From Opitutales bacterium (GTDB taxonomy: Bacteria; Verrucomicrobiota; Verrucomicrobiia; Opitutales; Coraliomargaritaceae): a DNA stretch of 20,296 nt. Of the stretch, positions 6,849-19,876 are shown piece after piece (within the stretch, counting starts at the first letter, position 1; each line of letters begins with the position of its first letter). The DNA lies in contig JBMYNR010000029.1 of the NCBI GenBank assembly GCA_049598495.1, forward strand, positions 1 through 20,296, given 5' to 3'. Made by a program: the position numbers and the translations under genes. The notes under the pieces were generated by a model. It did no database searches. It saw only the letters and a program-made list of their open reading frames with translations, and was not told the DNA's origin.

Positions 6849-6992
6849 ATCCCTTTCGCAATAAGGTTAAAAGGCGGGCTGAAGCCCGAACTCCAACTAT
6901 GCCCCACGCATTTTACGCGTTGGCGTGCGCCCTTCACGGCGTCCGGCCGACCCTACCTTTGCAATCCGTTCAAAATTTACGGCAGATGGTAT
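6849..6992 (+). repeat. 144-bp MITE-like composite repeat with two back-to-back TGGAG-type palindromes, ending GGCAGATGGTAT
   Basis: Collinear inverted copy at 19471-19613, a further copy at about 11195-11331 and a partial copy at 10838-10883. Confidence 0.8.
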
Positions 6993-8150: not shown

Positions 8151-8170
8151 CGATACAAAACGGATTAATT

Positions 8171-8400
8171 CTACTTAGTTAAATTTGAGGGTTTGGGATT
8201 TTGAACGAAGAGTTCCCTGCAGAACGCTGGCGACGGAGCACGGTAGTGCGTAGATGGCGAAGCCCGAAGGGAGAATGAAGCGGGCGCCCCTTGGGCAGAT
8301 GAATGAACATAGCCAGTGTTGTATCCATCGGAACGGCTCACAATGACTATCTTCATCGTGCGACAAATCTTTGATTCGGGAATTCAACTAAGTAGGCTTA
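8171..8400 (+). mobile_element. ~230-bp MITE-like element: terminal IRs enclosing a REP doublet whose left REP carries a 76-nt loop insertion (copy 1)
   Basis: TIR CTACTTAGTTAAATT (8171-8185) versus AATTCAACTAAGTAG (8381-8395), 14/15 match. Direct copy at 9617-9846. Confidence 0.75.
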
Positions 8401-8401
8401 A

Positions 8402-9544
8402 TCAATCGATTGAAATCACCCGGCCAGTAGATGTAGCCGCATCGTTTTTGAGGACCTCGTAGGCTTCCATGATGGCCCCCGCCAGATCGGCCCAATCCAC
8501 TGCCTTTGTTTCAAACCCCGAGCTGATGCGGATCACTCGTTCGGCTGCGGCAGGCGTGACGCCCATCGCTGCCAAGACATGGGAAGCCCCCGACTTACCC
8601 GTAGCGCAGGCAGAGCCCGACGAGACGAGAAAGCCCTGCCGCTCGAGCGCCCGCACCCAGCGAACACTCGGAAACTCAGGCAGGATGATCGAAGCCGTAT
8701 TCCATAATCGATCCGCCCCTGCTCCCAGTATCCGCATGTCAGGCATTTGTTGCGACAACTCAGCGAGAAAGGCATCACGGGCAGTTCCCGGCTGCGGCCG
8801 AGCTGCCGTGAGTGCCGCTACCATAGATAAAATGCCGGGCATATCCTCCGTCCCACCTCGGCGACCAGACTCCTGGGACCCGCCCATCTGCAGCACACAA
8901 GACTCATTCGGAGAAGATACCAGAAGGAATCCGACACCTTTAGGCCCTCCAAATTTATGCCCACACCCGCTGATGTAGGAACCACTCGAAAGCCCATCGA
9001 GCGGCATCTTACCCACCCACTGCGACGCGTCGCAGTGGTACTTGATTCCCGCATTTAGACATAGCGCGGCGATCTCCGCCCACGGCTGAATCACCCCCGT
9101 CTCGTTGTTGGCTGCCATCACCGAGACCAAGGCAAGATTATCCGTTGCCATTGCCCGCTCCAGCGCCGCCATATCGACGACCCCCTCATGATCGACCGGC
9201 AACCAAACCACCCGATCCTCGAAATGGAATCTGGCTGCTTCAATAACACTGGGATGCTCCGTCGTGCACACGGCAACTTTTCCATACGGGCAGCGTCGTG
9301 CCACATGAGCAAACACCGCATTGTTCGATTCGGTCGCTCCCGAGGTAAATATCAGACGATCTCTATTGGCTCCGAATCTGTCGGCGAGCGACTCGCGCGC
9401 CGCTTCGAGCCGCACACGGACCGCAGCTGCGTGGCGATAGGGGCTGGACGGGTTCATCCAATTCTCATCCGCCGCTTGAAGCCAAGCCGCCCGTGCAGCG
9501 GGCAGCAGTGGAGTGGTCGCATTATGGTCGAAGTAATGAAGCAT
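8402..9544 (-). CDS. Cysteine desulfurase, class I (IscS/NifS family)
   Basis: YFDHNATTP, FTSGATESNN, EHPSV, VMAANNETG, HCDASQ, PLP-binding GHKFGGPKG, catalytic SSGSAC. ATG 9544 is preferred as start. Confidence 0.93.
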   Translation of the reverse strand: MLHYFDHNATTPLLPAARAAWLQAADENWMNPSSPYRHAAAVRVRLEAARESLADRFGANRDRLIFTSGATESNNAVFAHVARRCPYGKVAVCTTEHPSVIEAARFHFEDRVVWLPVDHEGVVDMAALERAMATDNLALVSVMAANNETGVIQPWAEIAALCLNAGIKYHCDASQWVGKMPLDGLSSGSYISGCGHKFGGPKGVGFLLVSSPNESCVLQMGGSQESGRRGGTEDMPGILSMVAALTAARPQPGTARDAFLAELSQQMPDMRILGAGADRLWNTASIILPEFPSVRWVRALERQGFLVSSGSACATGKSGASHVLAAMGVTPAAAERVIRISSGFETKAVDWADLAGAIMEAYEVLKNDAATSTGRVISID

Positions 9545-9616
9545 GATCAAGCCGGAGGCTATTGGAATCATCTCTCGGGTCAAACGAAGTCAAGGCGCAC
9601 CCCGAAGTGTTTAGTC

Positions 9617-9846
9617 CCACATAGTTAGATTGGAGTGTTTAGGATTTTGAATGCAGATTTCTCTGCAGAACGCTGGCGACGGAGCACGGTAGTACGTAGA
9701 TGGCGAAGCCCGAAGGGAGAATGAAGCGGGCGCCCCTTGGGCAGATGAATGAACATAGCCAGTGTTGTATCGATCGGAACGACTCACAATGACTATCGTC
9801 ATCGTGCGACAATTCTTTGATTCAGGAATTTAACAAAGTAGGCTTA
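9617..9846 (+). mobile_element. ~230-bp MITE-like element, copy 2
   Basis: 9622-9846 aligns without gaps to 8176-8400 with 16 mismatches in 225 nt (manual count). Confidence 0.8.
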
Positions 9847-9859
9847 GGCAGTGTCTGCC

Positions 9860-10636
9860 TTAGGGAATCCGAATCTCCTGACCAACACGGATCGCGTTTT
9901 CACTCGAAATCCGGTCGCGGTTGGCTTGAAAAATGTCGATCCACCGAGAGGTCGTTCCATAAAACCGATTGCTAATGGTGCTCAAGGTATCCCCCGATTG
10001 CACCGTGTAGCTTCGCGGTGCTGCACTCGGACTGGGCAACTGCGGATCCGGCGCCACCGATGCCTGAGTCTGGATACGAACAGTCGGTGCCTGATTGACC
10101 GGAGTCGAGCGGCGCGCCTGCCCCAGCACATTCTCAAGTTGCTGCACCCGGGCGTTGGCAGCCATCAGTTCTCTTTTCAAACTGTCATTCTCCTGCTTAA
10201 GACTCTTCACTAAGTCCATGAGGTCGATCCGATCCAGCTCCCCTTCGTAAGGCTGCGCAGGCAGTTGGCGGGCAAACTCCTTTTGCGCCGTTTCAATAAG
10301 CTGGCGGACTTGACTGGCCTGCGGCGACTGGGGCTTGAATTGAAGGTAACGGTCGAAATGGTAGATCGCTCGAATCGGATCCTTCAAGGTGCGCAGATAA
10401 ATGTAGCCGGCTTCCAGATGAGACTCCGGAGCGTCGCGACGCACGTCAACCACCCGGAGAAAAGCACCCAGTGCTTCCTCCATCCGGCCCTGACTCTTAT
10501 AGTCCTGTCCGAGCTGGTATTGTTTTTCGTCCGACTCGCTGACAATCTCCACCCCACTCGGCGTGCACCCGGCCAAGGCCCAGAGCACCCAGAGGAGAAT
10601 CGAGCAGCTGATATATGGGGTGCAAACGCGAGCCAT
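9860..10636 (-). CDS. Lipoprotein with TPR, coiled coil and C-terminal LysM peptidoglycan-binding domain
   Basis: Lipobox LAGC, TPR-like helices (AIYHFDRYLQFKP) and LysM YTVQSGDTLSTISNRFYG...IFQANRD...IRVGQEIRIP. Confidence 0.88.
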   Translation of the reverse strand: MARVCTPYISCSILLWVLWALAGCTPSGVEIVSESDEKQYQLGQDYKSQGRMEEALGAFLRVVDVRRDAPESHLEAGYIYLRTLKDPIRAIYHFDRYLQFKPQSPQASQVRQLIETAQKEFARQLPAQPYEGELDRIDLMDLVKSLKQENDSLKRELMAANARVQQLENVLGQARRSTPVNQAPTVRIQTQASVAPDPQLPSPSAAPRSYTVQSGDTLSTISNRFYGTTSRWIDIFQANRDRISSENAIRVGQEIRIP

Positions 10637-10745
10637 GCTTTAGTGTGTTAAAACCGCGCCCTATCTCGTCAACGCTATTCGATTTTGGACGGTGCGCTCA
10701 TTCAATCCCCGAATACCACCGATCCTGTCCGCTCAACGGAAACAT

Positions 10746-11331
10746 GGACGGCTTCCGACTTCGCAAAAGCTAGGTCGGCGGGCTCATCGGCGTCACTGCC
10801 GATGCTTGTAGGTTATAGAGCGTAAGCTGGATGAAGACTCCGCGCATCCTAAGGGTTGGCGTGCGCCCTTCAGGGCGTCCGGCAGTAAGCCTACCCGTCT
10901 CAACTGCTACTTCCCTTTCGCAATTTAGAATCACAAGCTAAGCTCTACAGCCTCCGCCGCTTCGCTGAATCTTATTTCCCCCTTACTTTGACGATGAACC
11001 GCAATTTTTAGCGAAGATTGAACAGTTGGAAGATGCACGCTTCACAGAAGCCAAGTCTTTCGGGCGTTCCTCGGGCAGGTGTAGCGATGCGACGCCAGTC
11101 GCGTCGACGTATGAAGAGCTCCGAACAGACGGAGGCGCTTGTCCGTCGACCTTGCTAGCGCAAGTTCGCTACCTCGTGCCGGATATAGCGATTGAACGCT
11201 TTCTAAAATGGAATCAGACGGCCTAAAGGCAGAACTCCAACAAAGCTCCACGCATCCTAAGGTTGGAGTGCGCCCTTTAGGGCGTCCGTCCCTGTCTTTG
11301 CGACCAGCTCAGACTTTAGGGCAGATGGTAT
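10746..11331. repeat. Intergenic stack of palindromic repeats: 24-nt double-GNA core (10755-10778), hairpin (10785-10804), TGGAG palindromes, GTAG REP doublet (11081-11172)
   Basis: Most units match copies elsewhere in the window (6849-6992, 15502-15525, 19471-19613, 19807-19830). Confidence 0.75.
11081..11172. repeat. Inverted GTAG REP doublet (REPIN/BIME-like)
   Basis: GTAG-CGATGCGAC-GCCA-GTCGCGTCG (+, 11081-11106) and GTAG-CGAACTTGC-GCTA-GCAAGGTCG (-, 11147-11172). Confidence 0.75.
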
Positions 11332-11531
11332 CATCAGTCGATGCGATTCGTCAGAGAGATTCCCCTGAATCAAGGGAGCCAGCGCGATGGCGCGCACCTG
11401 CGATGAGAACCGGCAAACCACCTGCCACATCGAGCGCACCACCCCAAAGCAAGTCCACATCCCCTACTTCTCAGTATTCCAGGCCGACAGCAAAAAGTAA
11501 ACTGTAAGCGAGGCAACCGCCGAACGATTGA

Positions 11532-12035
11532 ATGAATATGAAATACGCTCTCTTATCCATCATGCTTCTGACCTTTCTTAACAACATACTTTCCGCTAAT
11601 CCGATCGCGCTGGGAACGCCCCCTCCTGAGTTGACCGCGATCAACGAACTCGGTGAAGCCATTGACCTGGGAGCCGAACTCTCGACGGGCACCGCACTTG
11701 TCTTTTTCTATCCAAAAGCGATGACTCCGGGTTGCACGAAGCAGGCCTGCAGTCTGCGCGATGCTTGGTCCGAACTACAGGCACGTGAGGTGAAAATTTT
11801 TGGTATTTCTTCAGACATGGCCAAAACCCAGGCCGAATTCAAAGACCGCTACCGTCTGCCTTTTACATTGATCGCCGATACGGACGGCAAAGTGAGCAGT
11901 GCCTTTGGCAAGGGCCGCTGGAGTCGACACGCCTATATCTTCAAGGATGGCAAACTTGCCTGGAGCGATCTAAGCGCGGCGACCAGCAAACAGGCGGAAG
12001 AAGTAATCGCAGCACTGGACGCTCTCGAAAAATAG
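11532..12035 (+). CDS. bcp: Peroxiredoxin, BCP/PrxQ family, with signal peptide
   Basis: FFYPKAMTPGCTKQACSLRD (PxxxTxxC plus resolving Cys), LPFTLIADTDG; hydrophobic N-terminal leader. Confidence 0.9.
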   Translation: MNMKYALLSIMLLTFLNNILSANPIALGTPPPELTAINELGEAIDLGAELSTGTALVFFYPKAMTPGCTKQACSLRDAWSELQAREVKIFGISSDMAKTQAEFKDRYRLPFTLIADTDGKVSSAFGKGRWSRHAYIFKDGKLAWSDLSAATSKQAEEVIAALDALEK

Positions 12036-12060
12036 CGCTTTCGCTTCAGGATAACGAAAT

Positions 12061-12126
12061 ATATCCACGGCACTCCGTTGCCGTGTCGGCATGCACAAAC
12101 GCCTCAACAGAGTGAGGCGGCTACAT
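12061..12126. repeat. REP doublet between convergent bcp and opcA
   Basis: CCACGGCA..C.GTTGCCGTG...AAACGCCTCAACAGAGTGAGGCGGCTACAT; near-identical copy at 19679-19746. Confidence 0.8.
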
Positions 12127-12159
12127 CGTTTAACCTCACTCAACTAAACGAAGAACGCA

Positions 12160-13146
12160 CTAGAAAAATAGCGCTTCCGCGATCGCCTGGTCCGCGCTCA
12201 ACGCTTTGATCCGGGTGGTGATCCGATCAGTCGACTTGCCGAGCGAGTCTTCAATCTCTCCGATCATGCCCTCGCTCGGTTTACGCCATTTGAAGCTGCG
12301 CTCGTCCGTATAGCTGAGCTCAAGAGACAGCGCACATTCGGCGTCCTTGCTCCCGCATTCTTCAACCGTGTAGACCGCCTTCATTGAAGAGGCGTCTTCG
12401 CAAGTCGTACACTCGCCAAGACAGTCTTTGATCCAATCCATCAAGCGCACCCCCTCGCCCGACATCGATTCACCGTAGCGCACCGTTACCGACACGAGGT
12501 TTTTGCACAAGGCCTTCATCGTGTATCCACTGAGGTATTGCCCGATCGCTTGACGCACTGGAAGGAGCCGCGCCGTGGCGAGATCCGCTACCTGATCGGG
12601 ATTCGGCCAATCCAACTGACTTAAATCTTCCGACTCATAGGTGCTGTCGTATATCGAGCGCCTGACTCCCGTGAGTAGATTGCCGAAATACGCTTGTATG
12701 CGGGCTCCAGGAACGCCGCAGAACCAGTGATAACTCGGTAAATCCGGCTCGAGCCAAACCGACACCTGATTCGCGAGAAAGCCGCAATTGTCCGGCTGAT
12801 AGCCGAGAAGCAGTGCTTCGCAGCAGCACATTTCCCTGTGCGAATCACCAATGTAGCACTGACTGAAGAGCTTCGCCCGCATGGACCCATCTGTGATACT
12901 ACGCGTGGGGCACAGGACAATGATCCGGCTCGGGTAACGCTGTGCAAACTTCAAAAGCGTTTCGAATCGTTCGGTCGCCTGCTCCGCACTCACCTCCCAG
13001 CCAAAATGAAGCACGACATTCATCTGCGAGGCACGAAACGCGGAAGGTGAGCCGGTCGCATCACTCTCCCACATCCGTTCCAAGCGATGAGTCACCTCAC
13101 CGACAGGCAGGTCGATCCCGAGAAAAACATCTATTAAATCGGTCAT
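12160..13146 (-). CDS. opcA: Glucose-6-phosphate dehydrogenase assembly protein OpcA
   Basis: RASQMNVVL, YPSRIIVLCP, CCCE, LEPDLPSYHW, DLATARLLPVRQAI; downstream of zwf. Confidence 0.85.
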   Translation of the reverse strand: MTDLIDVFLGIDLPVGEVTHRLERMWESDATGSPSAFRASQMNVVLHFGWEVSAEQATERFETLLKFAQRYPSRIIVLCPTRSITDGSMRAKLFSQCYIGDSHREMCCCEALLLGYQPDNCGFLANQVSVWLEPDLPSYHWFCGVPGARIQAYFGNLLTGVRRSIYDSTYESEDLSQLDWPNPDQVADLATARLLPVRQAIGQYLSGYTMKALCKNLVSVTVRYGESMSGEGVRLMDWIKDCLGECTTCEDASSMKAVYTVEECGSKDAECALSLELSYTDERSFKWRKPSEGMIGEIEDSLGKSTDRITTRIKALSADQAIAEALFF

Positions 13147-13194
13147 GCGAAAATCCTCATTGAGAAGAAAGGGTCGGGCTTAAGAGCGCTAGCC

Positions 13195-13343
13195 GTAGCA
13201 CGCCGACGACGGAGCACGGCAGTACGTAGATGGCGAAGCCCGAAGGGAGAATGAAGCGGGCGCCCCTCGGGCAGCTGAATGAACACAATCGGTGTGTTGG
13301 ATGGTTAAGTCGGCAACAACACTGGCTATCGCCAGCGTTCTAC
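13195..13343 (+). repeat. GTAG REP doublet; left REP carries the 76-nt insertion (copy 3), right REP is empty
   Basis: GTAGCACGCCGACGA [13210-13285] CAATCGGTGTG. Partner 13318-13343 reads GTAGAACGCTGGCGATAGCCAGTGTT on the minus strand. Confidence 0.85.
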
Positions 13344-13391
13344 AAGCCTCTGAGTGAATCTTCATTGTCTAAATAGCTTATCCGAATTCCA

Positions 13392-14945
13392 TTAGCCGGA
13401 CCGGCGCCACTGATGCCGGCGCTCCGCGAGCAGTTGCTCACTCTCCTGGGGACCCCACGAACCGGCAGCGTAATCCATCAATCCATCCGCGCCGCACGCT
13501 TCCCAGTGTTTGAGGACGGGCGTGACCAGTTTCCACGACGCCTCTGTCTCATCTCCACGGATAAAAAGCGTGCTGTCCCCAATCATCGCATCGAGGATCA
13601 ATCGTTCGTAAGCCTCGGGCGTATTGGAGCCAAAGGTTGTGGAATAGCGGAAGTGCATCTTCACAGGCTGCGTGCGTGTCTCCAGGCCCGGAATCTTTGA
13701 GTTCATGACGATCGTAACACCCTCATCAGGCTGGATACTAATCACCATCGTGTTGGGCGCCACGTTAAACTTATCTCCTTCGGAAAAAAGAATACCGGGC
13801 GGGCGCTTGAATTGGATGGCAATCTCACTCGCGCGACGGGCCATTCGCTTACCCGAGCGGATATAGAACGGGACACCTTGCCAGCGCCAATTGTTGATCG
13901 CAAGACGCATCGCCGCATAGGTCTCCGTGCTGGAGTCTTCCGGGATACCCGTTTCTTCTATATAGCCCTTTACCGGCTCTCCCTTAACCAAGCCACTCGT
14001 ATAGCGCCCGCGAATCACGTCGCCACCATCGGCCTCCAGATTGAGCGGCTGGATTGCCTTGATCACCTTAACTTTCTCATCACGGATCCCCTCCGGATCG
14101 AGAGAGACCGGCGGCTCCATGGCCGTCAACGCAACCAACTGCATGGTATGATTTTGAATCATATCTCGCAGCGCACCGCTCGAATCATAATAACCGCCGC
14201 GTGAGCCCACCCCGAGGCTCTCGGCCACGGTGATCTGCACGCAATCAATATACTCGCGGTTCCAAAGCGGCTCAAAGATCGAGTTACTGAAGCGCTGCAC
14301 AAGTAAGTCCTGAACGGTCTCTTTTCCAAGATAGTGGTCGATTCGATAGACCTGAGGTTCCTCGAAGACACTGTTGATCACAGAATTCAGCTCATGGGCG
14401 GATTCTAGATCACGACCGAAAGGTTTCTCAATGACCACCTTGGAGGCGAGCTTTGTACCTACATGCGCTTGAGCCATCCCGCTCCGACCCAGATTCAAAA
14501 TGATCGATTCAAAGACACTCGGGGGCGTCGAGACATAGAACAAACGTTGCACATCACGGCCGAGACCTGACTCGATCGCATTGATTTTCTCGGCGAGCGA
14601 ATCGTAGGCAGCCTGCTCATCGTATCCACCCGAGTGATAAGTCATGTTGTGGCGGACGCGCTCCCAAATCTCCTTACTGAGAGGTCGCCGCGAATGCTCC
14701 CCAATGGCCTCGTCCATCATAGATCGAAACTCCTCGTCGGGAATCGGCTTGCGCCCAAAACCGATGAGGTGGAACTCGCCCGGCAGCAAATTATCCACCC
14801 CAAGATTGAAGATGGCCGGCACAAGCTTGCGTGCGGTCAAATCGCCCGAGGCGCCAAAGATGACAACAACGGTCGGCGGCGCTCCGCGATGTTTGCTTAG
14901 ACCCTTTAAAAACGGGTGTCTTATTTCTTCAGATTCCTGGCTCAT
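13392..14945 (-). CDS. zwf: Glucose-6-phosphate 1-dehydrogenase
   Basis: IFGASGDLTARKL, EKPFG, RIDHYLGKE, RDMIQNH, RWQGVPFYIRSGKR. Confidence 0.98.
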   Translation of the reverse strand: MSQESEEIRHPFLKGLSKHRGAPPTVVVIFGASGDLTARKLVPAIFNLGVDNLLPGEFHLIGFGRKPIPDEEFRSMMDEAIGEHSRRPLSKEIWERVRHNMTYHSGGYDEQAAYDSLAEKINAIESGLGRDVQRLFYVSTPPSVFESIILNLGRSGMAQAHVGTKLASKVVIEKPFGRDLESAHELNSVINSVFEEPQVYRIDHYLGKETVQDLLVQRFSNSIFEPLWNREYIDCVQITVAESLGVGSRGGYYDSSGALRDMIQNHTMQLVALTAMEPPVSLDPEGIRDEKVKVIKAIQPLNLEADGGDVIRGRYTSGLVKGEPVKGYIEETGIPEDSSTETYAAMRLAINNWRWQGVPFYIRSGKRMARRASEIAIQFKRPPGILFSEGDKFNVAPNTMVISIQPDEGVTIVMNSKIPGLETRTQPVKMHFRYSTTFGSNTPEAYERLILDAMIGDSTLFIRGDETEASWKLVTPVLKHWEACGADGLMDYAAGSWGPQESEQLLAERRHQWRRSG

Positions 14946-15391
14946 ACTTGGCTTGTGTCGTGTTTTGGAAAGAGTGCCGCGTTGGCGTAGTGGCGGACGG
15001 TGCCCTCACCTTCGTGGGCAATGGCCACATCCACGATATCAAAACGGATGTGTTTTGGGGGATTTTGCAATTGATTAATGTAGGCCTTACATCCGCGTAG
15101 AAGCGCCTTCTTCTTGGAAGCAGACACCGAATGCACCCCCGATACGAGGGCATCCGCGGCCCGCGCACGCACTTCAAGGAAGACCAATACCTCGCCGTCC
15201 AGACAGATAAGATCGAGTTCATACCTCTTCCAGCGCCAGTTGCGGGCGATCACCCGGTAGCCCAGACGGTGCCTGCAATAGTCCGCTGCGAGATCTTCGC
15301 CAAACTGCCCACGCTCCGCCCGCGTGCTCCCCGGAGGGACCCGCTTGGGCCTCCGATAAAATATTTCAGCCAACCTATGAATAAAACTCAC
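14942..15391 (-). CDS. yraN: YraN family (UPF0102) PD-(D/E)xK nuclease
   Basis: GQFGEDLAADY, GYRVIARNWR, ELDLI, LVFLEVRAR, IRFDIV. GTG 15391 is preceded by AAGGA; 4-bp overlap with zwf. Confidence 0.9.
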   Translation of the reverse strand: MSFIHRLAEIFYRRPKRVPPGSTRAERGQFGEDLAADYCRHRLGYRVIARNWRWKRYELDLICLDGEVLVFLEVRARAADALVSGVHSVSASKKKALLRGCKAYINQLQNPPKHIRFDIVDVAIAHEGEGTVRHYANAALFPKHDTSQV

Positions 15392-15478
15392 GCCTTGTTC
15401 CTTAGCTGAAATTTCCCCGATCCACAATGAGCAAGTCAATCACCGAGCGGCGGCACCTATCAGGATTGCACGTGAAAG

Positions 15479-15581
15479 GTAGGGACGGATGCCCCCCGTG
15501 TCCGGCGTAGCTTCTGCGAAGCGGGAATCCGTCCGCAGGTCGCAACGCCAAACCCGGACGCCTGAGGGCAGGCGTCCCTAC
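15479..15581. repeat. GTAGGGACG REP doublet; left REP has a 30-nt loop insertion
   Basis: GTAG-GGACGGAT...ATCCGTCC (15479-15534). Partner GTAG-GGACGCCT-GCCCTC-AGGCGTCC (-, 15556-15581). Confidence 0.8.
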
Positions 15582-15647
15582 CATGGAATCCGTGAGAGAA
15601 CCCCTACCATTTGATTCCTTGCGATCCCATACTCGTGTGTCTCTCAT

Positions 15648-16721
15648 ATTGGCATCAAAACAAATTGTCATAACTCCCCTACACTCATCGTCGGCGCTGG
15701 ACTCGCCGGCTGTCTCCTCGCATGGCGACTTCTGCGTTCGGGAGAGGATGTTATCCTCCTAGGCAGCCGCAAATTGCCCAGCGCCTTCAGTGTGGCCGCA
15801 GGCGTCATCAACCCCGTCACCGGCCGATGGATGACCAAGACATGGAATGCGGACGAGATCCTGCCTGTTGCGGCGCGGACCTATCGCGAGATTGAAACCG
15901 CGCTCGGGGTTGAGGTGTATCACCCTATCCCGGAAATTCGCTTCTGCCAGAACGCGGAGGACGTCAAGCGAGTTGCGCGGCGCATGCGCAACCCGCGCTA
16001 TCAGGATGTTTTGGGCGCCTTTCTGGAGCCCGGCGACACGTCGTCTCAATTCAATGACGCATACGGTGCCTTTGAAATCAAGGGAGCCGCCTACGTCGAT
16101 CTCCCCCGCCTGGTGGAATCACTTCGTTCCGAGTTAAAAAAACGGGATCTATTTCGCGATGAGGTCTTCCGCCACGATGCACTCGAACAAGGCGAGGATG
16201 GCTGGGGCTATGGCGAAATTCACGCCGAGCGAGTGGTCTTCTGCGAAGGTGCGGCGACCTTGGAGAACCCTTGGTTCAAGCATGTGGCACTCAGGCCCGT
16301 AAAAGGGGAAACCCTCCTCTGTCAGAACGAGCAGCTCGACTTGGACGGCACACTCTATCAACACAAGAAATGGCTCTTACCCTACTCCAATGGACGGTTC
16401 CGTGTCGGCGCGAGCTATGACGAGGACGACTTGAACGCCGAACCAACGGCGGCCAAGCAAAAGGAATTACTAGAGGCCGTTGCAATCGCCGTGAAAACAC
16501 ATCACTCACCTAAGGTTGTCGAACACTTGGCCGGCATCCGTCCGAGCACGGCGGACAGTCGGCCCATCATCGGCGCCCATCCAACCGAAGCAGGGCTCTA
16601 TATCCTCAACGGTCTTGGTTCCAAGGGGGCCTCAACCGGCCCCGCGATGGTCGAAGCACTGGCAGCGCACCTGATCGAAGGAACGCCCATCGACCCCGAA
16701 ATTTGTATTTCCCGATTTTGA
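15648..16721 (+). CDS. FAD-dependent oxidoreductase, DAO/glycine oxidase/MnmC-oxidase-like; start uncertain
   Basis: In frame upstream of the track's TTG 15774 lies TLIVGAGLAGCLLAWRL (GxGxxG). Later motifs are VAAGVINP, PVKGE, VGASY, AGIRP...RPIIG and NGLGSKG. There is no canonical in-frame start before the Rossmann motif; ATT 15648 is shown tentatively. Confidence 0.8.
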   Translation: MGIKTNCHNSPTLIVGAGLAGCLLAWRLLRSGEDVILLGSRKLPSAFSVAAGVINPVTGRWMTKTWNADEILPVAARTYREIETALGVEVYHPIPEIRFCQNAEDVKRVARRMRNPRYQDVLGAFLEPGDTSSQFNDAYGAFEIKGAAYVDLPRLVESLRSELKKRDLFRDEVFRHDALEQGEDGWGYGEIHAERVVFCEGAATLENPWFKHVALRPVKGETLLCQNEQLDLDGTLYQHKKWLLPYSNGRFRVGASYDEDDLNAEPTAAKQKELLEAVAIAVKTHHSPKVVEHLAGIRPSTADSRPIIGAHPTEAGLYILNGLGSKGASTGPAMVEALAAHLIEGTPIDPEICISRF

Positions 16722-16737
16722 CCCATCCGAAGTAAAG

Positions 16738-16897
16738 GTAGGGCGGTTTGTCCCTAAACCGCCGTTCGCCATTTGATCACACATGCCATTCTCTATAATA
16801 TGGCTTCTGGGACCGCTTGCCGAACAGCACCCATGGGGGACCGACTCCGTCGGTCCGCAAACTCCCAACTAACCGGGCCGACAGAGTCGGTCCCCCA
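16738..16897. repeat. GTAG REP (16738-16763) plus inverted doublet TGGGGGACCGACTCYGTCGGYCC (16834-16897)
   Basis: GTAG-GGCGGTTT-GTCCCT-AAACCGCC. 16834-16856 and 16875-16897 are inverted copies of each other. Confidence 0.75.
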
Positions 16898-16919
16898 CTC
16901 TCCTTCCAAGCTCAGCACC

Positions 16920-17483
16920 ATGCGACTCACTGAACTAGCCCACCACATCCTCACCGAACATCTACAGGATGGCGACCGGGCCATTGATGCCACCGCCGGC
17001 AATGGGCACGACACCATTTTCCTCGCGAGGCAGGTAGGATCCGAAGGCAGTGTCATCGCCATTGACATTCAGGACGCCGCGATCGAGGCCACCCGCACAA
17101 GGCTGGAGCAGGCGAAGCTACTTACGCGGGTGACCCTTCGCGCCGGGGACCACGCTGACATCATGGAAGAGCTGGCTCTTAAGCATGCCGCCGAATTTGC
17201 GGCCATCATCTTTAACCTCGGTTACCTACCCGGCAGCGATCAAGGCGTCCAAACCCAACCGACAACAACGAGGCGGGCACTCCATGCTGCGCTCGAGTTA
17301 CTCCAGCCTTCGGGTCGACTCTGCGTCACCGCCTACCGTGCTCATCCGGGAGGTCTTGAAGAAGCTGCTACTGTGGAAGCGTGGATGCAGCAACAGAAGG
17401 CGAAAGGGCACAGCATAGAGGTCCACGTCCCACCTTCGGACAACAGCCCACCCATCCTCTGGGTGCTGACGAAGGCGGTTTAA
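16920..17483 (+). CDS. mnmM: Class I SAM-dependent methyltransferase, YtqB/MnmM family (probable tRNA nm5s2U34 methyltransferase)
   Basis: AIDATAGNGHDTIFLA, AIDIQ..AIEAT, FNLGYLPGSD and AYRAHPGGLEE are YtqB-family motifs. ATG 16920 is preferred; the track's upstream extension runs through repeats. Confidence 0.8.
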   Translation: MRLTELAHHILTEHLQDGDRAIDATAGNGHDTIFLARQVGSEGSVIAIDIQDAAIEATRTRLEQAKLLTRVTLRAGDHADIMEELALKHAAEFAAIIFNLGYLPGSDQGVQTQPTTTRRALHAALELLQPSGRLCVTAYRAHPGGLEEAATVEAWMQQQKAKGHSIEVHVPPSDNSPPILWVLTKAV

Positions 17484-17523
17484 CGGACACGAAAATCTTA
17501 CCACCCGTTCACTCGCATAGCGA

Positions 17524-17600
17524 ATTCACTGGAGGACACAAAGATGACACAGCCACCAACAACCCTCCTCTTCGTGCACTCCGTGTTCTTTGTGGTGAAA
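17524..17600. repeat. Degenerate inverted pair of CACCAC-(AGAACACGG)n-type low-complexity repeats
   Basis: TTCACTGGAGGACACAAAGATGACACAG (+) faces TTCACCACAAAGAACACGGAGTGCACGAAG (-). Confidence 0.4.
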
Positions 17601-17623
17601 TGAAGAATCGCATCGGCCCATCT

Positions 17624-17901
17624 GTAGCACGATGGCGACAGCCATTGTGATCCGGTCATCAGCCTACCGTACAGTCCGTAACACCGACTTTGTTCATTCA
17701 GTTGCCTGAGGGGCACCCGCTTCATTCTCCCTTCGGGCTTCGCCATCTACGCACTGCCGTGCTCCGTCGTCGGCGTTCTACAAAGTAAACCGTAGCACGA
17801 TGGCGAGAGCCATTGTGAGCAGCCAACTCGACAGGCCATAACACCGACTGCCGTCGGCGTTCTACAAAGTAAACCGTAGCACGTTGGCGAGAGCCATTGT
17901 G
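17624..17901. repeat. BIME-like REP array A-B*-A-B-A; B* carries the 76-nt insertion (copy 4, minus strand)
   Basis: A = GTAGCACGWTGGCGASAGCCATTGTG (17624, 17792, 17876). B* = 17680-17781, empty B = 17840-17865. Linker AAAGTAAACC occurs twice. Confidence 0.88.
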
Positions 17902-17911
17902 ATCCAGCCCG

Positions 17912-18785
17912 CTAAGTCCCGTCTTCGCGTTGGCCATCATTCGCCTCCAAGCGCTCGCGGATTTTGAGGCGTATCTGGTAGAAGTAGACCGCCTTCATCC
18001 ATGCAAAGTGGAACCCCACCGCTCCGTCCAAAAAGCCCTTTTTCAAAAAGTAGCCGCGAAGAAAATAGACCGGTGCCGCCCACCATTTCGCCAGATGCCG
18101 ATACTTTTTCTGCTGCCGGGGTGTCAGGCGATCCCACGCGGACGCCTGAGGGCAGAGGGCAGGCGTCCCTACCTTGACTTTCCAGCTGGAGCCAGCGGGC
18201 CGCCTCCCAGCTGGAATACTCGTTGTGCTTGGCGATATAGTGCGCCAGACCGCGATACTCATTGTGCTCAATCGGCGCCGCGATCTCACCCGTCGGTCCT
18301 TCGAGCACCGGATGCTCATGGATCTCCATATCCAGCCCGCTCCAGCGCGACTCTTCGATCCGCTCGTACTCACCGGCACCGACCCGAAAGAGGGCCAGCT
18401 TGAGAAATTCATCCCCGTGCCGGAGCTGTCGCCCAAGGAACCAGCGCTCGTAGTTGAGCCAAAAACCGACACAATCCGTCGTCGGGAGCGCCGCCTCCAA
18501 CTCCGCGACAAAGGCATCCGTGACAAATTCATCCGCGTCCAGGAAAAGCACCCAGCCCGTCTCTAAGCTCACCTCGCGCAACGCCCAGTTACGTTTCTTA
18601 GGAAAACCGCCATCCCATTCGAATTGGAGAACCTCAGCGCCCGCCTCGCGGGCGATCTCGCAGCTGCCGTCGTCGCTCCCCGAGTCGACCACGATGACAC
18701 GCGGGAAGGCCGCCAAACGCTAGAGACAACGCGGTAAATTGCCCGCCTCGTTCTTGATGGGGATGATGACGGTGACATCAAGCAT
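17912..18785 (-). pseudogene. Glycosyltransferase family 2 pseudogene (TAG at codon 22; +7-bp frameshift inside an embedded REP)
   Basis: ATG 18785 gives MLDVTVIIPIKNEAGNLPRCL*RLAAF (TAG at 18720-18722), then VVDSGSDDG, KKRNWAL, WVLFLDADE, EIHEH. The C-terminus (YFLKKGFLDGAVGFHFA) is in another frame after the GAGGGCA duplication at 18148-18161. Confidence 0.88.
18140..18172 (-). repeat. GTAG REP embedded in GT2 coding sequence
   Basis: Identical to 15556-15581 apart from the tandem-duplicated 7-mer. Confidence 0.9.
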
Positions 18786-19470: not shown

Positions 19471-19613
19471 ATACCATCTGCCATAAGTTTCGAACTACTT
19501 GCAGAGCTAGGGAGGGCTGATCGCCCTGAAGGGCGCACTCCAACGCTGAGAAGGCGCCGGGCTTGGTTGGAGTTCGGGCTTTAGCCCGTCTTTTAACCTC
19601 ATTGCGAAGGGAT
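19471..19613 (-). repeat. Inverted copy of the 144-bp TGGAG composite repeat
   Basis: Collinear with 6849-6992 from ATCCCTT(T)CGCAAT to GGCAGATGGTAT. Confidence 0.8.
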
Positions 19614-19678: not shown

Positions 19679-19746
19679 ATGCAGCCACGGCATTCTGTTG
19701 CCGTGCCCGTATTTATAAACGCCTCAACAGAGTGAGGCGGCTACAT
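19679..19746. repeat. REP doublet, copy of 12061-12126
   Basis: Shares AAACGCCTCAACAGAGTGAGGCGGCTACAT exactly. Confidence 0.8.
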
Positions 19747-19797: not shown

Positions 19798-19859
19798 AGA
19801 CGGCTTCCCGCTCCGCAGAAGCTACGCGGGGCGGCTGGGGGGGGGGCAGCCGTCCCTAC
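19798..19859 (-). repeat. GTAGGGACGG REP with 36-nt loop insertion
   Basis: Minus strand reads GTAG-GGACGGCT-G(C)10-AGCCGC-CCCGCGTAGCTTCTGCGGAGCGGG-A-AGCCGTCT. Confidence 0.75.
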
Positions 19860-19876
19860 CCAAAAACAAAAAAACC

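Follow-up and report, generated by a model that had tools for sequence, protein, structure and literature searches.

How do very small bacterial repeats that leave no target duplication, such as REPs and SDRs, move? The question is a long-standing one, in part because the ends of these repeats are vague. It is raised here by four copies of a 76-nt sequence in the window, i.e., the whole 20,296-nt stretch of an Opitutales genome that was analyzed (contig JBMYNR010000029.1), each of which is flanked by the two arms of a 26-nt REP whose loop it splits as GA|NA. The original prediction took this 76-mer to be a mobile element that is non-autonomous and inserts precisely, leaving no duplication, and the comparison of filled and empty orthologues, together with a junction-shift test, bears this out. 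It forms one subfamily within a larger family, whose members are 75-149 nt long. This gene-less Opitutales family inserts precisely behind G-A or C-A and likely adopts a single-stranded DNA fold; with a probability of roughly 0.5, we propose that it is cut out and re-inserted by an HUH/Y1 (RAYT-like) enzyme acting in trans.

Copies of the element and their host repeats

The positions and strands originally predicted for the four copies were correct (Table 1), and the copies resemble one another beyond chance (BLAST E values of 2e-34 to 3e-26). Both of the empty REPs that had been pointed out exist, but the second has a different loop from the GAAA rebuilt by removing copy 4. The GTAG foot attributed to all hosts does not apply to copies 1 and 2, where it is GCAG. 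These two copies reside in a 236-nt composite unit, further siblings of which are found on contig C6 (filled) and contig C3 (empty). Over this shared unit, the insert is indeed better conserved than its flanks, with 1/76 versus 19/160 mismatches; the earlier flank count, 15/149, came from a shorter span. Because copies 1, 2 and C6 lie within copies of one composite, they probably reflect a single insertion event.

Only 2/15 end positions are complementary, in line with the predicted lack of terminal inverted repeats. The 1-nt ambiguity of the junctions was also recognized correctly; that is, one A is common to both junctions, and the element can be read one base leftward. The strand described as purine-rich has a purine fraction of 0.67. 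What had been regarded as a twice-repeated GAATGAA consists of two GAATGA(A) tracts that form the two sides of a single stem, with no free repeat.

Table 1. Positions in the window of the element copies, their host repeats, and the parts of the fold (numbered on copy 1).
Feature	Position	Strand	Remarks
Element copy 1	8234..8309	+	76 nt; alternative register 8233-8308
Element copy 2	9680..9755	+	76 nt
Element copy 3	13210..13285	+	between opcA and zwf; orthologous site empty in related strain
Element copy 4	17691..17766	-
Host REP of copy 1	8219..8320	+	arms 8219-8233 and 8310-8320; GCAG foot
Host REP of copy 2	9665..9766	+	arms 9665-9679 and 9756-9766
Host REP of copy 3	13195..13296	+	arms 13195-13209 and 13286-13296
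Host REP of copy 4	17680..17781	-	arms 17767-17781 and 17680-17690
Empty REP, inverted partner of copy 3 host	13318..13343	-
Empty REP in tandem sibling unit of copy 4	17840..17865	-	loop GGCA
236-nt composite unit with copy 1	8165..8400	+	REP pair and flanks
Second copy of 236-nt composite unit, with copy 2	9611..9846	+
Left module H1	8234..8253	+	C1-G20 pair, GNA/GNA internal loop, 4-bp stem, cGNNAg loop (8242-8245)
Invariant ATG	8254..8256	+	47/47 rows
Variable hairpins H2 and H3	8257..8270	+	here GC-GAA-GC and CC-GAA-GG; length differs across family
Long stem P4/H4	8272..8307	+	tandem G.A pairs, invariant GGG bulge (8282-8284), YGCCC/GGGCR cap
Invariant terminal CA	8308..8309	+	right junction

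Empty alleles and exactness of the junctions

Comparison of orthologous loci, using assembled contigs, yielded an empty allele of copy 3 in a related strain that is 97-99% identical and appears in three independent seawater studies. In run X6, one contig spans 12160-15495 with a net 76 nt absent and with 41 other differences over 3259 aligned bases. The same empty joint was found in runs X10 and X16, i.e., in 3/8 runs in total. The empty allele retains the same imperfect REP arms.

Across the family, the rejoined flanks match an ungapped empty homologue at 68/147 sites (5 of them trivial, from tandem arrays). When the junction was shifted by -2, -1, +1 or +2, only 2, 5, 8 and 4 empty homologues were found, respectively. 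The rejoined flanks thus fit empty sites with no extra bases, and the family junctions are exact and devoid of terminal repeats, in agreement with the predicted absence of a target duplication. Removal of the element also restores the reading frames of a RAYT gene, an integrase gene, and Rhs-type and other genes.

Range of the family and its targets

The family comprises 143 distinct sequences in 104 distinct targets, and is present in 33/81 genomes of the window's order, which named records identify as Opitutales, at low copy number (1-22 per genome); a pattern search in 319 other genomes of the phylum found it in none. The insert length, predicted to be fixed, is so for the 76-mer subfamily but not for the family. 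Rfam searches of the window and of 20 member loci gave no match that reached the gathering threshold, in line with the original failure to recognize the 76-mer as a described family. The plasmid and phage collections held no real match to the element, nor was it found in the literature searched.

The consensus over the 104 distinct targets is G (78) or C (23) at -2, A at -1, and A (80) at +1, with nothing else in common. The target can therefore be summarized as [G/C]A|, then mostly A, with the information confined to these three positions. The A at -1 was built into the seed pattern, but when one mismatch was allowed it was absent in only 1/126 among the matches listed, and it is present in 24/29 empty homologues. 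The insertions are found in REP loops, tandem repeats, tRNA fragments, genes, and the element's own copies. One Rhs-type gene carries three separate insertion sites, and single-copy genes are also among the targets. Clean nesting of one element within another is seen at loci L147 and L306, while L173 has five head-to-tail copies sharing one A, and L172 two different family members end to end.

This range of targets does not agree with the proposed specialization on REP loops, or on hairpin structure: 35/102 family targets lie in hairpin loops with at least 4 stem pairs, versus 777/2040 control sites, i.e., without enrichment. In the source genome, 9/13 family copies occupy the loop of one REP family, in an orientation that is fixed relative to the host REP strand (9/9). 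The use of REP loops is a habit of the source genome and not of the family, probably because the GANA loop offers an exposed target, or because the REP's own machinery spreads filled REPs.

Fold of the element

A four-helix fold is supported by covariation. In this fold 82% of the cells are paired, against 31-44% in slid controls, and 77 cells are changed on both sides, compared with 33.5 in shuffles, of which 0/500 were as high. All 8 pairs of P4 are changed on both sides, and its two outer positions are G.A in 61 and 63 of 97. In H1, both partners of pairs 8-17 and 9-16 are changed in 4 and 6, respectively, of the 47 rows of alignment A2. The T-G of the invariant ATG is predicted to pair with the terminal CA, which would hold both ends together; we infer this pairing, as invariance precludes covariation.

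The H1 tetraloops are GNNA in 175/184 cases, GNYA (125) being more frequent than GNRA (50), and GNA triloop variants occur too. The motif GCGNNAGC, a DNA mini-hairpin described as far less stable in its RNA form (PMC13037366), is found in 116/143 family sequences. Such loops (cGNNAg, cGNAg) are of the DNA type and suggest that the folded form is single-stranded DNA. Loop census and covariation thus agree on the type of fold that was originally suggested, and the element likely folds as single-stranded DNA.

Movement of the element

In the mechanism that we favor, the purine-rich strand, once exposed, would fold, and the invariant T-G would pair with the terminal C-A, placing the ends side by side. 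The HUH/Y1 enzyme would then nick both ends at the shared A (C|A at the right end, G|A or C|A at the left junction), releasing a 76-nt single-stranded circle with the junction seen in tandem arrays. This circle would join another exposed strand at [G/C]|A, and replication would produce one filled and one empty daughter. An element inside a host repeat is also multiplied passively along with that repeat. C|A and G|A, the dinucleotides at the junctions, would fit the cut sites of TnpA_REP; this enzyme is described as needing only a dinucleotide and cutting C|T, and one homologue as also cutting C|A, and G|A with an altered guide (PMC8266576, PMC3333891).

The source genome has 4 Y1 genes. Such genes are present in 16/18 element-bearing genomes scored for both, missing in 2, and present in 15/23 element-free genomes. 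The linked RAYT/Y1 gene that had been anticipated did not emerge: among 53 Y1 loci, none carries or is flanked by element ends, and there is no parent IS sharing them. Only one of these loci had an element nearby, and a second copy of that IS had none. Neither the left-end-only loci that were read (11, plus L060) nor half-profile pairing across all loci revealed an autonomous or ORF-bearing version. No clear lagging-strand bias emerges: the pooled data give p=0.018, but by locus the ratio is 64:54 (p=0.41), and in the source genome 5:7.

What counts against the HUH/Y1 mechanism is the lack of a Y1 gene with element ends, of an autonomous version and of a clear strand bias, together with the Y1 genes of element-free genomes and the 2 element-bearing genomes that have none. 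Nor was a free circle seen among the assembled contigs. REP/RAYT pairs normally diverge fast, whereas the element core is nearly invariant across three families. In addition, the junction bases often differ from those of the nearest empty site, and a clean HUH transfer would not change them. The orthologous empty allele of copy 3 has C at -1; the tandem sibling of copy 4 has G|C where the host of copy 4 has A|A; and +1 has gone from G to A in 9/13 target families. The choice of variant targets could explain the altered bases under the HUH/Y1 mechanism.

The shift of junction bases to A, at both -1 and +1, also lends some weight to a tentative alternative, in which the element and its DNA fold are the same but the mover is not an HUH enzyme. 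Here a single-strand nuclease of the Ssn/GIY-YIG type would make a nick, or another recombinase would act, after which polymerase template switching or repair would copy the element in and might overwrite junction bases. Ssn nucleases are described as cutting beside single-stranded hairpins (PMC11893778), no Y1 gene is linked to the element, and the source genome has three small GIY-YIG genes, one IS110 and two IS91-type genes. However, the junction is base-exact and length-neutral, +1 is unchanged in 15/29 families, and none of the GIY-YIG, IS110 and IS91-type genes is flanked by the element (the single IS110 is cut by the contig end, with no element end visible). IS110 elements have a 2-nt core and a subterminal repeat; neither is found at the element, whose junctions share only the 1-nt A.

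It is unlikely that the copies are mostly passengers, i.e., that a few old insertions were followed by amplification of the host repeat and by gene conversion among REPs with and without an insert, with movement of the element itself being rare. Such spread accounts for local copy number: the outer flanks of copies 1, 2 and C6 differ by 7-19 mismatches over 65-69 nt, whereas most other pairs differ by 40-59; one and the same host context is met in different genomes (e.g., L007, L011, L155, L266, L302); and 9/9 source-genome copies of the 76-mer subfamily are in one loop type, despite 472,489 SA sites in that genome. It does not account for the family, whose 104 distinct targets include single-copy genes, the three sites in one Rhs-type gene, and the element's own stem. 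Moreover, the imperfect REP arms of copy 3 are shared by its empty allele, and the host stems differ by compensatory pairs that are found among empty REPs too.

We regard as very improbable that the element is a small RNA, i.e., a mini-intron or ribozyme that reverse-splices or is reverse-transcribed into DNA with the help of a borrowed reverse transcriptase. The source genome has a group II intron reverse transcriptase, the many invariant unpaired bases recall catalytic RNAs, the same stems are possible in RNA, and 12/15 insertions in coding-like frames are sense. Nevertheless, the loops are GNYA and GNA triloops, not GNRA or UNCG; the other 3/15 insertions are antisense; Rfam gave no match in the window or the 20 member loci; and 7/12 sense insertions have lengths of 87 or 90 nt and contain no stop, which is what translation, rather than splicing, would lead one to expect. 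We give scant credence, lastly, to folded DNA that holds the ends and the target and drives strand exchange by itself or with general host proteins, with T-G as internal guide for the junction A and no transposase of its own or of an IS: no partner gene was found, the core is invariant order-wide, and both junctions end in an A that we infer could pair alternately with the same T, but restriction to a single order hints at a lineage-specific protein, elements that are moved in trans normally lack a partner, and we know of no natural DNA-joining DNA enzyme. If true, the element would represent a naturally occurring DNA transposon of <100 bases that is catalytic or directs itself, and would be the first well-defined representative of a class that may include the tiny loop-invading repeats known from other phyla.

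For the question of how such repeats move, the family offers base-exact ends, a 2-3-base target, a covariation-supported fold, and natural filled and empty alleles; tandem arrays display, indirectly, the predicted circle junction. The element can be synthesized as one 76-90-nt oligonucleotide, and family members are found in complete genomes from an order of which some species are in culture, which makes an enzyme search and a direct test of the reaction feasible. Extra sequence is accepted in the variable hairpins (members of 75-149 nt, nested copies), so that the system, if it can be made to work, would serve as a minimal tool for scarless insertion of single strands.

Relation to known elements

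The family is SDR/REP/PATE-like in kind. Like the SDRs of Nostocaceae (Elhai et al. 2008, Genome Res 18:1484), to which SDRs are described as confined, it is very small and gene-less and inserts precisely, without duplication, into other repeats; SDR5, for example, inserts between bases 3 and 4 of HIP1 (PMC4390886, PMC5861425). It is set apart by its 75-149 nt, four helices and [G/C]A| target, in a comparison with descriptions of SDRs. SDRs are reportedly simple hairpins of ~20-30 nt, and we know of no mover for them.

With REP/BIME/REPIN sequences and TnpA_REP, as described, the element has in common single-strand hairpins and cut sites defined by a dinucleotide (C|T, C|A, G|A), as well as GDAG and GRAG tetranucleotides beside stems; it also resembles the GTAG repeats of O. 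terrae, which have intragenic in-frame copies (PMC3733652). In contrast to REPs and REPINs, its ends are base-fixed, it enters REPs as a single unit instead of an inverted pair, it flanks no RAYT gene, and its copy number is low. We rejected identity with REP/REPIN, since a 5' tetranucleotide foot and one 20-40-nt palindrome fit the hosts but not the four-helix insert.

IS200/IS605 elements are described as having no inverted repeats and no duplications, using one strand, and inserting 3' of a short fixed sequence (PMC3333891). The element, like these and PATEs, has neither inverted repeats nor duplications and inserts 3' of a fixed short sequence. Its target is 2-3 nt, however, compared with 4-5 nt for IS608 and ISDra2, and its structure reaches both termini instead of being subterminal. 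Ends in common with an autonomous tnpA/tnpB element, as in PATEs, were found neither in the limited sample of 53 Y1 loci nor among left-only and right-only matches. A TIR-type MITE was ruled out by the 2/15 complementary end positions and lack of target-site duplication. The lack of a family-model match, the antisense insertions (3/15), and the in-frame, stop-free sense insertions (7/12) speak against a self-splicing intron or known ribozyme.

IS1397, IS621 and the IS110 group (Tobes and Pareja 2006, cited in PMC3733652, PMC3116915) are described as inserting into REPs, but are full ISs with a transposase; the element has none and is not REP-specific. Ssn-related motifs (NTS/SRM) are likewise repeated single-strand hairpins recognized on one strand only, although SRMs are described as single short hairpins flanking ssn genes (PMC11893778), and none of the three small GIY-YIG genes of the source genome is flanked by the element. 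Rickettsia palindromic elements are similarly tolerated in frame inside genes (PMC3733652); by description, RPE-1 is a longer palindrome, whereas the Opitutales family also nests and forms tandem arrays. Its own 7 in-frame cases add inserts of 29-30 residues to proteins.

Four elements in REP loops and the filled and empty alleles of copy 3

All four 76-nt elements that the original prediction placed in the loops of REP hairpins (copies 1-4) were borne out in position and strand, each with the loop cut after GA (see the table). As had also been claimed, the window copies have neither a terminal inverted repeat nor a target duplication, with a single A common to both junctions. No Rfam family matched the window, where a search (E up to 5) gave three chance matches far below gathering. 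Rfam searches of 20 member loci yielded five chance matches only, and BLAST of plasmid and phage collections a single weak partial match each, with E of 0.2 and 0.6.

Filled and empty alleles were compared by aligning Logan contigs from eight metagenome runs (X numbers) to the window. One contig of X6 covers 12160-15495, with 41 differences besides the missing copy 3; it omits 13209-13285 and has a single C there, a net loss of 76 nt. The joint in X10 and X16 is identical to that of X6, while contigs of X2, X5 and X7 continue into the copy 3 element and those of X8 and X13 are broken at the site. In the empty allele, the base at target position -1 is C, not A. X6, X10 and X16 come from three studies but probably from one strain lineage, and thus amount to one polymorphic site, where the element may have been either gained or exactly lost. 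Coverage of the copy 4 region was low in X6 and X8.

Coordinates of the elements, their hosts and neighboring repeats (G000, source genome of the window; C, its contigs; L, numbered loci)
Feature	Location	Strand	Setting
Copy 1	8234-8309	+	4-nt loop of 26-nt REP split after GA; after recF, intergenic
Copy 2	9680-9755	+	4-nt loop of 26-nt REP split after GA; after cysteine desulfurase, intergenic
Copy 3	13210-13285	+	4-nt loop of 26-nt REP split after GA; between opcA and zwf, intergenic
Copy 4	17691-17766	-	4-nt loop of 26-nt REP split after GA; between methylase and glycosyltransferase, intergenic
160-nt unit	window 8165-8400, 9611-9846; G000 C6:27230-27464, C3:57652-57801		
~140-nt repeat family	window 6852-6992, 10840-10883, 11216-11331, 19471-19611		
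62-nt two-copy repeat	window 12065-12126, 19685-19746		further REP-like type
GTAGGG-type REPs	window 15475-15585, 18136-18176, 19799-19860		
Interrupted tRNA-Ser(GCT) half	G000 C15:36300-36560; L187, L222, L295		G -> A after junction
~280-nt unit	G000 C9:27700-28050, C73; L009, L015, L144, L156		

Copies across the source genome

A covariance model identified 12 family copies in G000 (1.75 Mb, 73 contigs). Eight form the 76-nt subfamily, all inside loops of one REP family, and four diverged copies lie outside REPs (on C9, C15 and C31, and a truncated one on C47). A degenerate 41-nt copy on C2 likewise follows a REP arm. About 47-49 REPs are empty, and the loop starts with GA in 42 of 49. Copies 1 and 2 and the copy on C6 have common outer flanks and belong to copies of a single 236-nt composite, present in empty form on C3, so they are counted as one event, probably a single insertion; the remaining host REPs differ in stem and flank.

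A 160-nt unit contains an inverted REP pair and is bounded by imperfect ~23-nt inverted repeats. Of its four copies, three are filled and the fourth is empty; it may be a mobile unit in its own right. The host REP family flanks none of the four Y1 genes in G000; its RAYT may be missing from the assembly. The RAYT gene L001 (C12:8366-9154) has REP-like repeats of its own, translated in frame.

Family size and host range

BLAST with the 76-mer gave matches in 8 of 60 relatives. The family set was built from pattern scans of GTDB, metagenomes and viral contigs, and its counts are lower bounds, biased toward the left-end pattern. The GTDB pattern, which gave at least 118 loci, was too loose, with most loci being chance matches to coding sequence, and inspection covered 44 of 122 matches; the metagenome scan gave at least 125 loci, and four viral-contig scans gave two true members (L025 and L363, apparent prophage records) and four chance matches. 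At least 152 complete elements were extracted by the parser, and five were removed for an ambiguous end or nesting. Among the matches listed, the family thus comprises at least 147 elements and at least 143 distinct sequences of 75-149 nt (median 90), in at least 104 distinct targets.

In a scan of 401 genomes from the phylum, 33 of 81 belonging to the window's order contained the left-end pattern versus 0 of 319 others, and the reversed control gave one match. By the covariance model, 18 of 26 genomes of the order were positive, with 1-22 copies each, and 124 genomes outside it gave one match (G196, E 0.004), which we rejected as weak and only left-end-like. We take the order to be Opitutales from the named records among the matches listed, i.e., Opitutaceae, Puniceicoccaceae, Lentimonas, Lacunisphaera, Cephaloticoccus and unplaced Verrucomicrobiota. 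In one subfamily (L033, L145, L147, L223 and L227), frequently the inner member of nested pairs, a long purine-rich tract replaces part of P4, the long right stem.

Junctions and targets

Searches with the rejoined flanks recovered an empty homologue at 68 of the 147 sites, 5 of them trivial; moving the junction by 1-2 bases left only 2-8. Target information is confined to three positions, with G or C at -2, A at -1 and mostly A at +1. The -1 A belonged to the seed pattern of the scans; its conservation is supported by a mismatch-tolerant search, in which only 1 of 126 matches listed lacks it, and by its presence in 24 of 29 empty homologues identified after masking of the junction.

Hairpin-loop targeting was rejected for the family as a whole, the targets being without enrichment in hairpin loops. 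The original interpretation stands as to a real, precise, non-autonomous mobile family and falls as to a REP specialist. Tandem repeats of 7-9 nt were the target at 9 of 103 sites versus 11 of 1040 controls; other targets include a duplicated tRNA-Ser 5' half and RAYT, integrase, IS481-like, IS91-like, Rhs-type and methylase genes, as well as the element's own stem and right end.

A coding filter, in which the end of L013 was placed 3 nt off, was passed by 15 of the 131 sites with sufficient flank (12 sense, 3 antisense). Seven sense inserts in coding frames are 87 or 90 nt long and stop-free, which fits tolerance of translated inserts rather than splicing; the rest are mostly in mobile genes. 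In the Rhs-type gene L274 (G277:C162:1-1800), family members lie at three separate places; two of these are 87-nt in-frame inserts, as is one in L280. In tRNA-Ser(GCT), the duplicated 5' half lies ahead of the intact tRNA, its D-loop broken by a family member. A conserved non-coding unit of ~280 nt, present in several genomes, has three separate sites filled by different members in different genomes.

Predicted fold and active form

In the left module, H1, the C1-G20 pair closes a GNA/GNA internal loop, above which a 4-bp stem carries a cGNNAg loop. It is followed by an invariant ATG, two variable hairpins, the long stem and CA; in the long stem, the model has G.A pairs in tandem, a bulge of invariant GGG and, as cap, YGCCC/GGGCR. 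A T-G/C-A closure is a predicted pairing of invariant bases, and a GGG-CCC pseudoknot was considered and rejected, being without covariation. In a MAFFT alignment of 47 rows, made without fitting to the structure, paired cells make up 82%, against 31-44% in slid controls, and two-sided changes number 77 cells versus 33.5 in shuffles. Because of relatedness among the rows and the partial constraint that the pattern places on H1, P4, with two-sided change in 8 of 8 pairs, is better evidence for the fold than H1.

The window copies score poorly in minimum-energy folding (z -1.8 as DNA, -0.7 as RNA), since the energy model omits G.A pairs and mini-hairpins; two better-paired members reach z -2.1 to -2.8. 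The H1 loops are GNYA in 125 of 184 and GNRA in 50 of 184, plus GNA triloop variants. GCGNNAGC and GCGNAGC are DNA mini-hairpins, much weaker as RNA (PMC13037366). In our reading, the element is active as single-stranded DNA.

Mechanism and candidate mover

If the shared A is counted with the left end, the two junctions, like the tandem one, read C|A or G|A. TnpA_REP enzymes cut within a dinucleotide, C|T; one of them also cuts C|A, and G|A once its guide has been changed (PMC8266576 and PMC3333891). Atypical structures flank some Y1 subclasses (PMC6006769). Because the junctions suit such cuts and such flanking structures exist, we favor, with a probability of about 0.5, a Y1 enzyme supplied in trans that would act on the element, excise it as a circle and re-insert the circle at [G/C]|A. 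Against this count the lack of a partner gene among 53 Y1 loci, a co-occurrence of Y1 genes with the element across genomes that does not discriminate, and the lack of a clear strand bias.

Also against it, junction bases lean to A when compared with the closest empty sites, and in 9 of 13 families +1 is A in place of G; this could reflect target choice or, with a lower probability than the Y1 route, rewriting in a copy-in process. The search for an autonomous element gave only truncated or recombined copies among left-end-only loci, only duplicated host elements among close element pairs, and one spurious pair by half-profile pairing. Scanning neighboring ORFs for HUH motifs gave 4 matches in 123 loci, 3 of them RAYT genes interrupted by the element. 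Genes for group II intron reverse transcriptase, IS110, IS91-type and small GIY-YIG proteins are present in G000, none linked to the element.

Relation to known elements and other repeats

By analogy, the family would work in like manner to single-strand elements of the IS200/IS605 or REP type. It behaves like SDRs, yet fails the membership tests for SDRs, and those for MITEs, REPs and PATEs. No description of it was found in the literature searched, which excluded most subscription papers.

Several further mobile or repeated sequences were observed. The group II intron of G000 (C3:6150-7800) encodes a 452-aa reverse transcriptase, has a typical 3' end and lies near an IS91-type gene. The three small single-domain GIY-YIG genes (C50:8186-8413, C8:32133-32345 and C52:7283-7492) are Ssn-like by size, and at least two adjoin tRNA genes with partial tRNA-like copies. 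In the Opitutales genome G442, IS200-type transposase genes occur in at least 47 near-identical copies. In the window, another dispersed repeat family, of ~140 nt, is very abundant in the aligned metagenome contigs, and one GTAGGG-type REP lies within the gene for the glycosyltransferase (17937-18716); the 3' part of this gene apparently reads on in a different frame.
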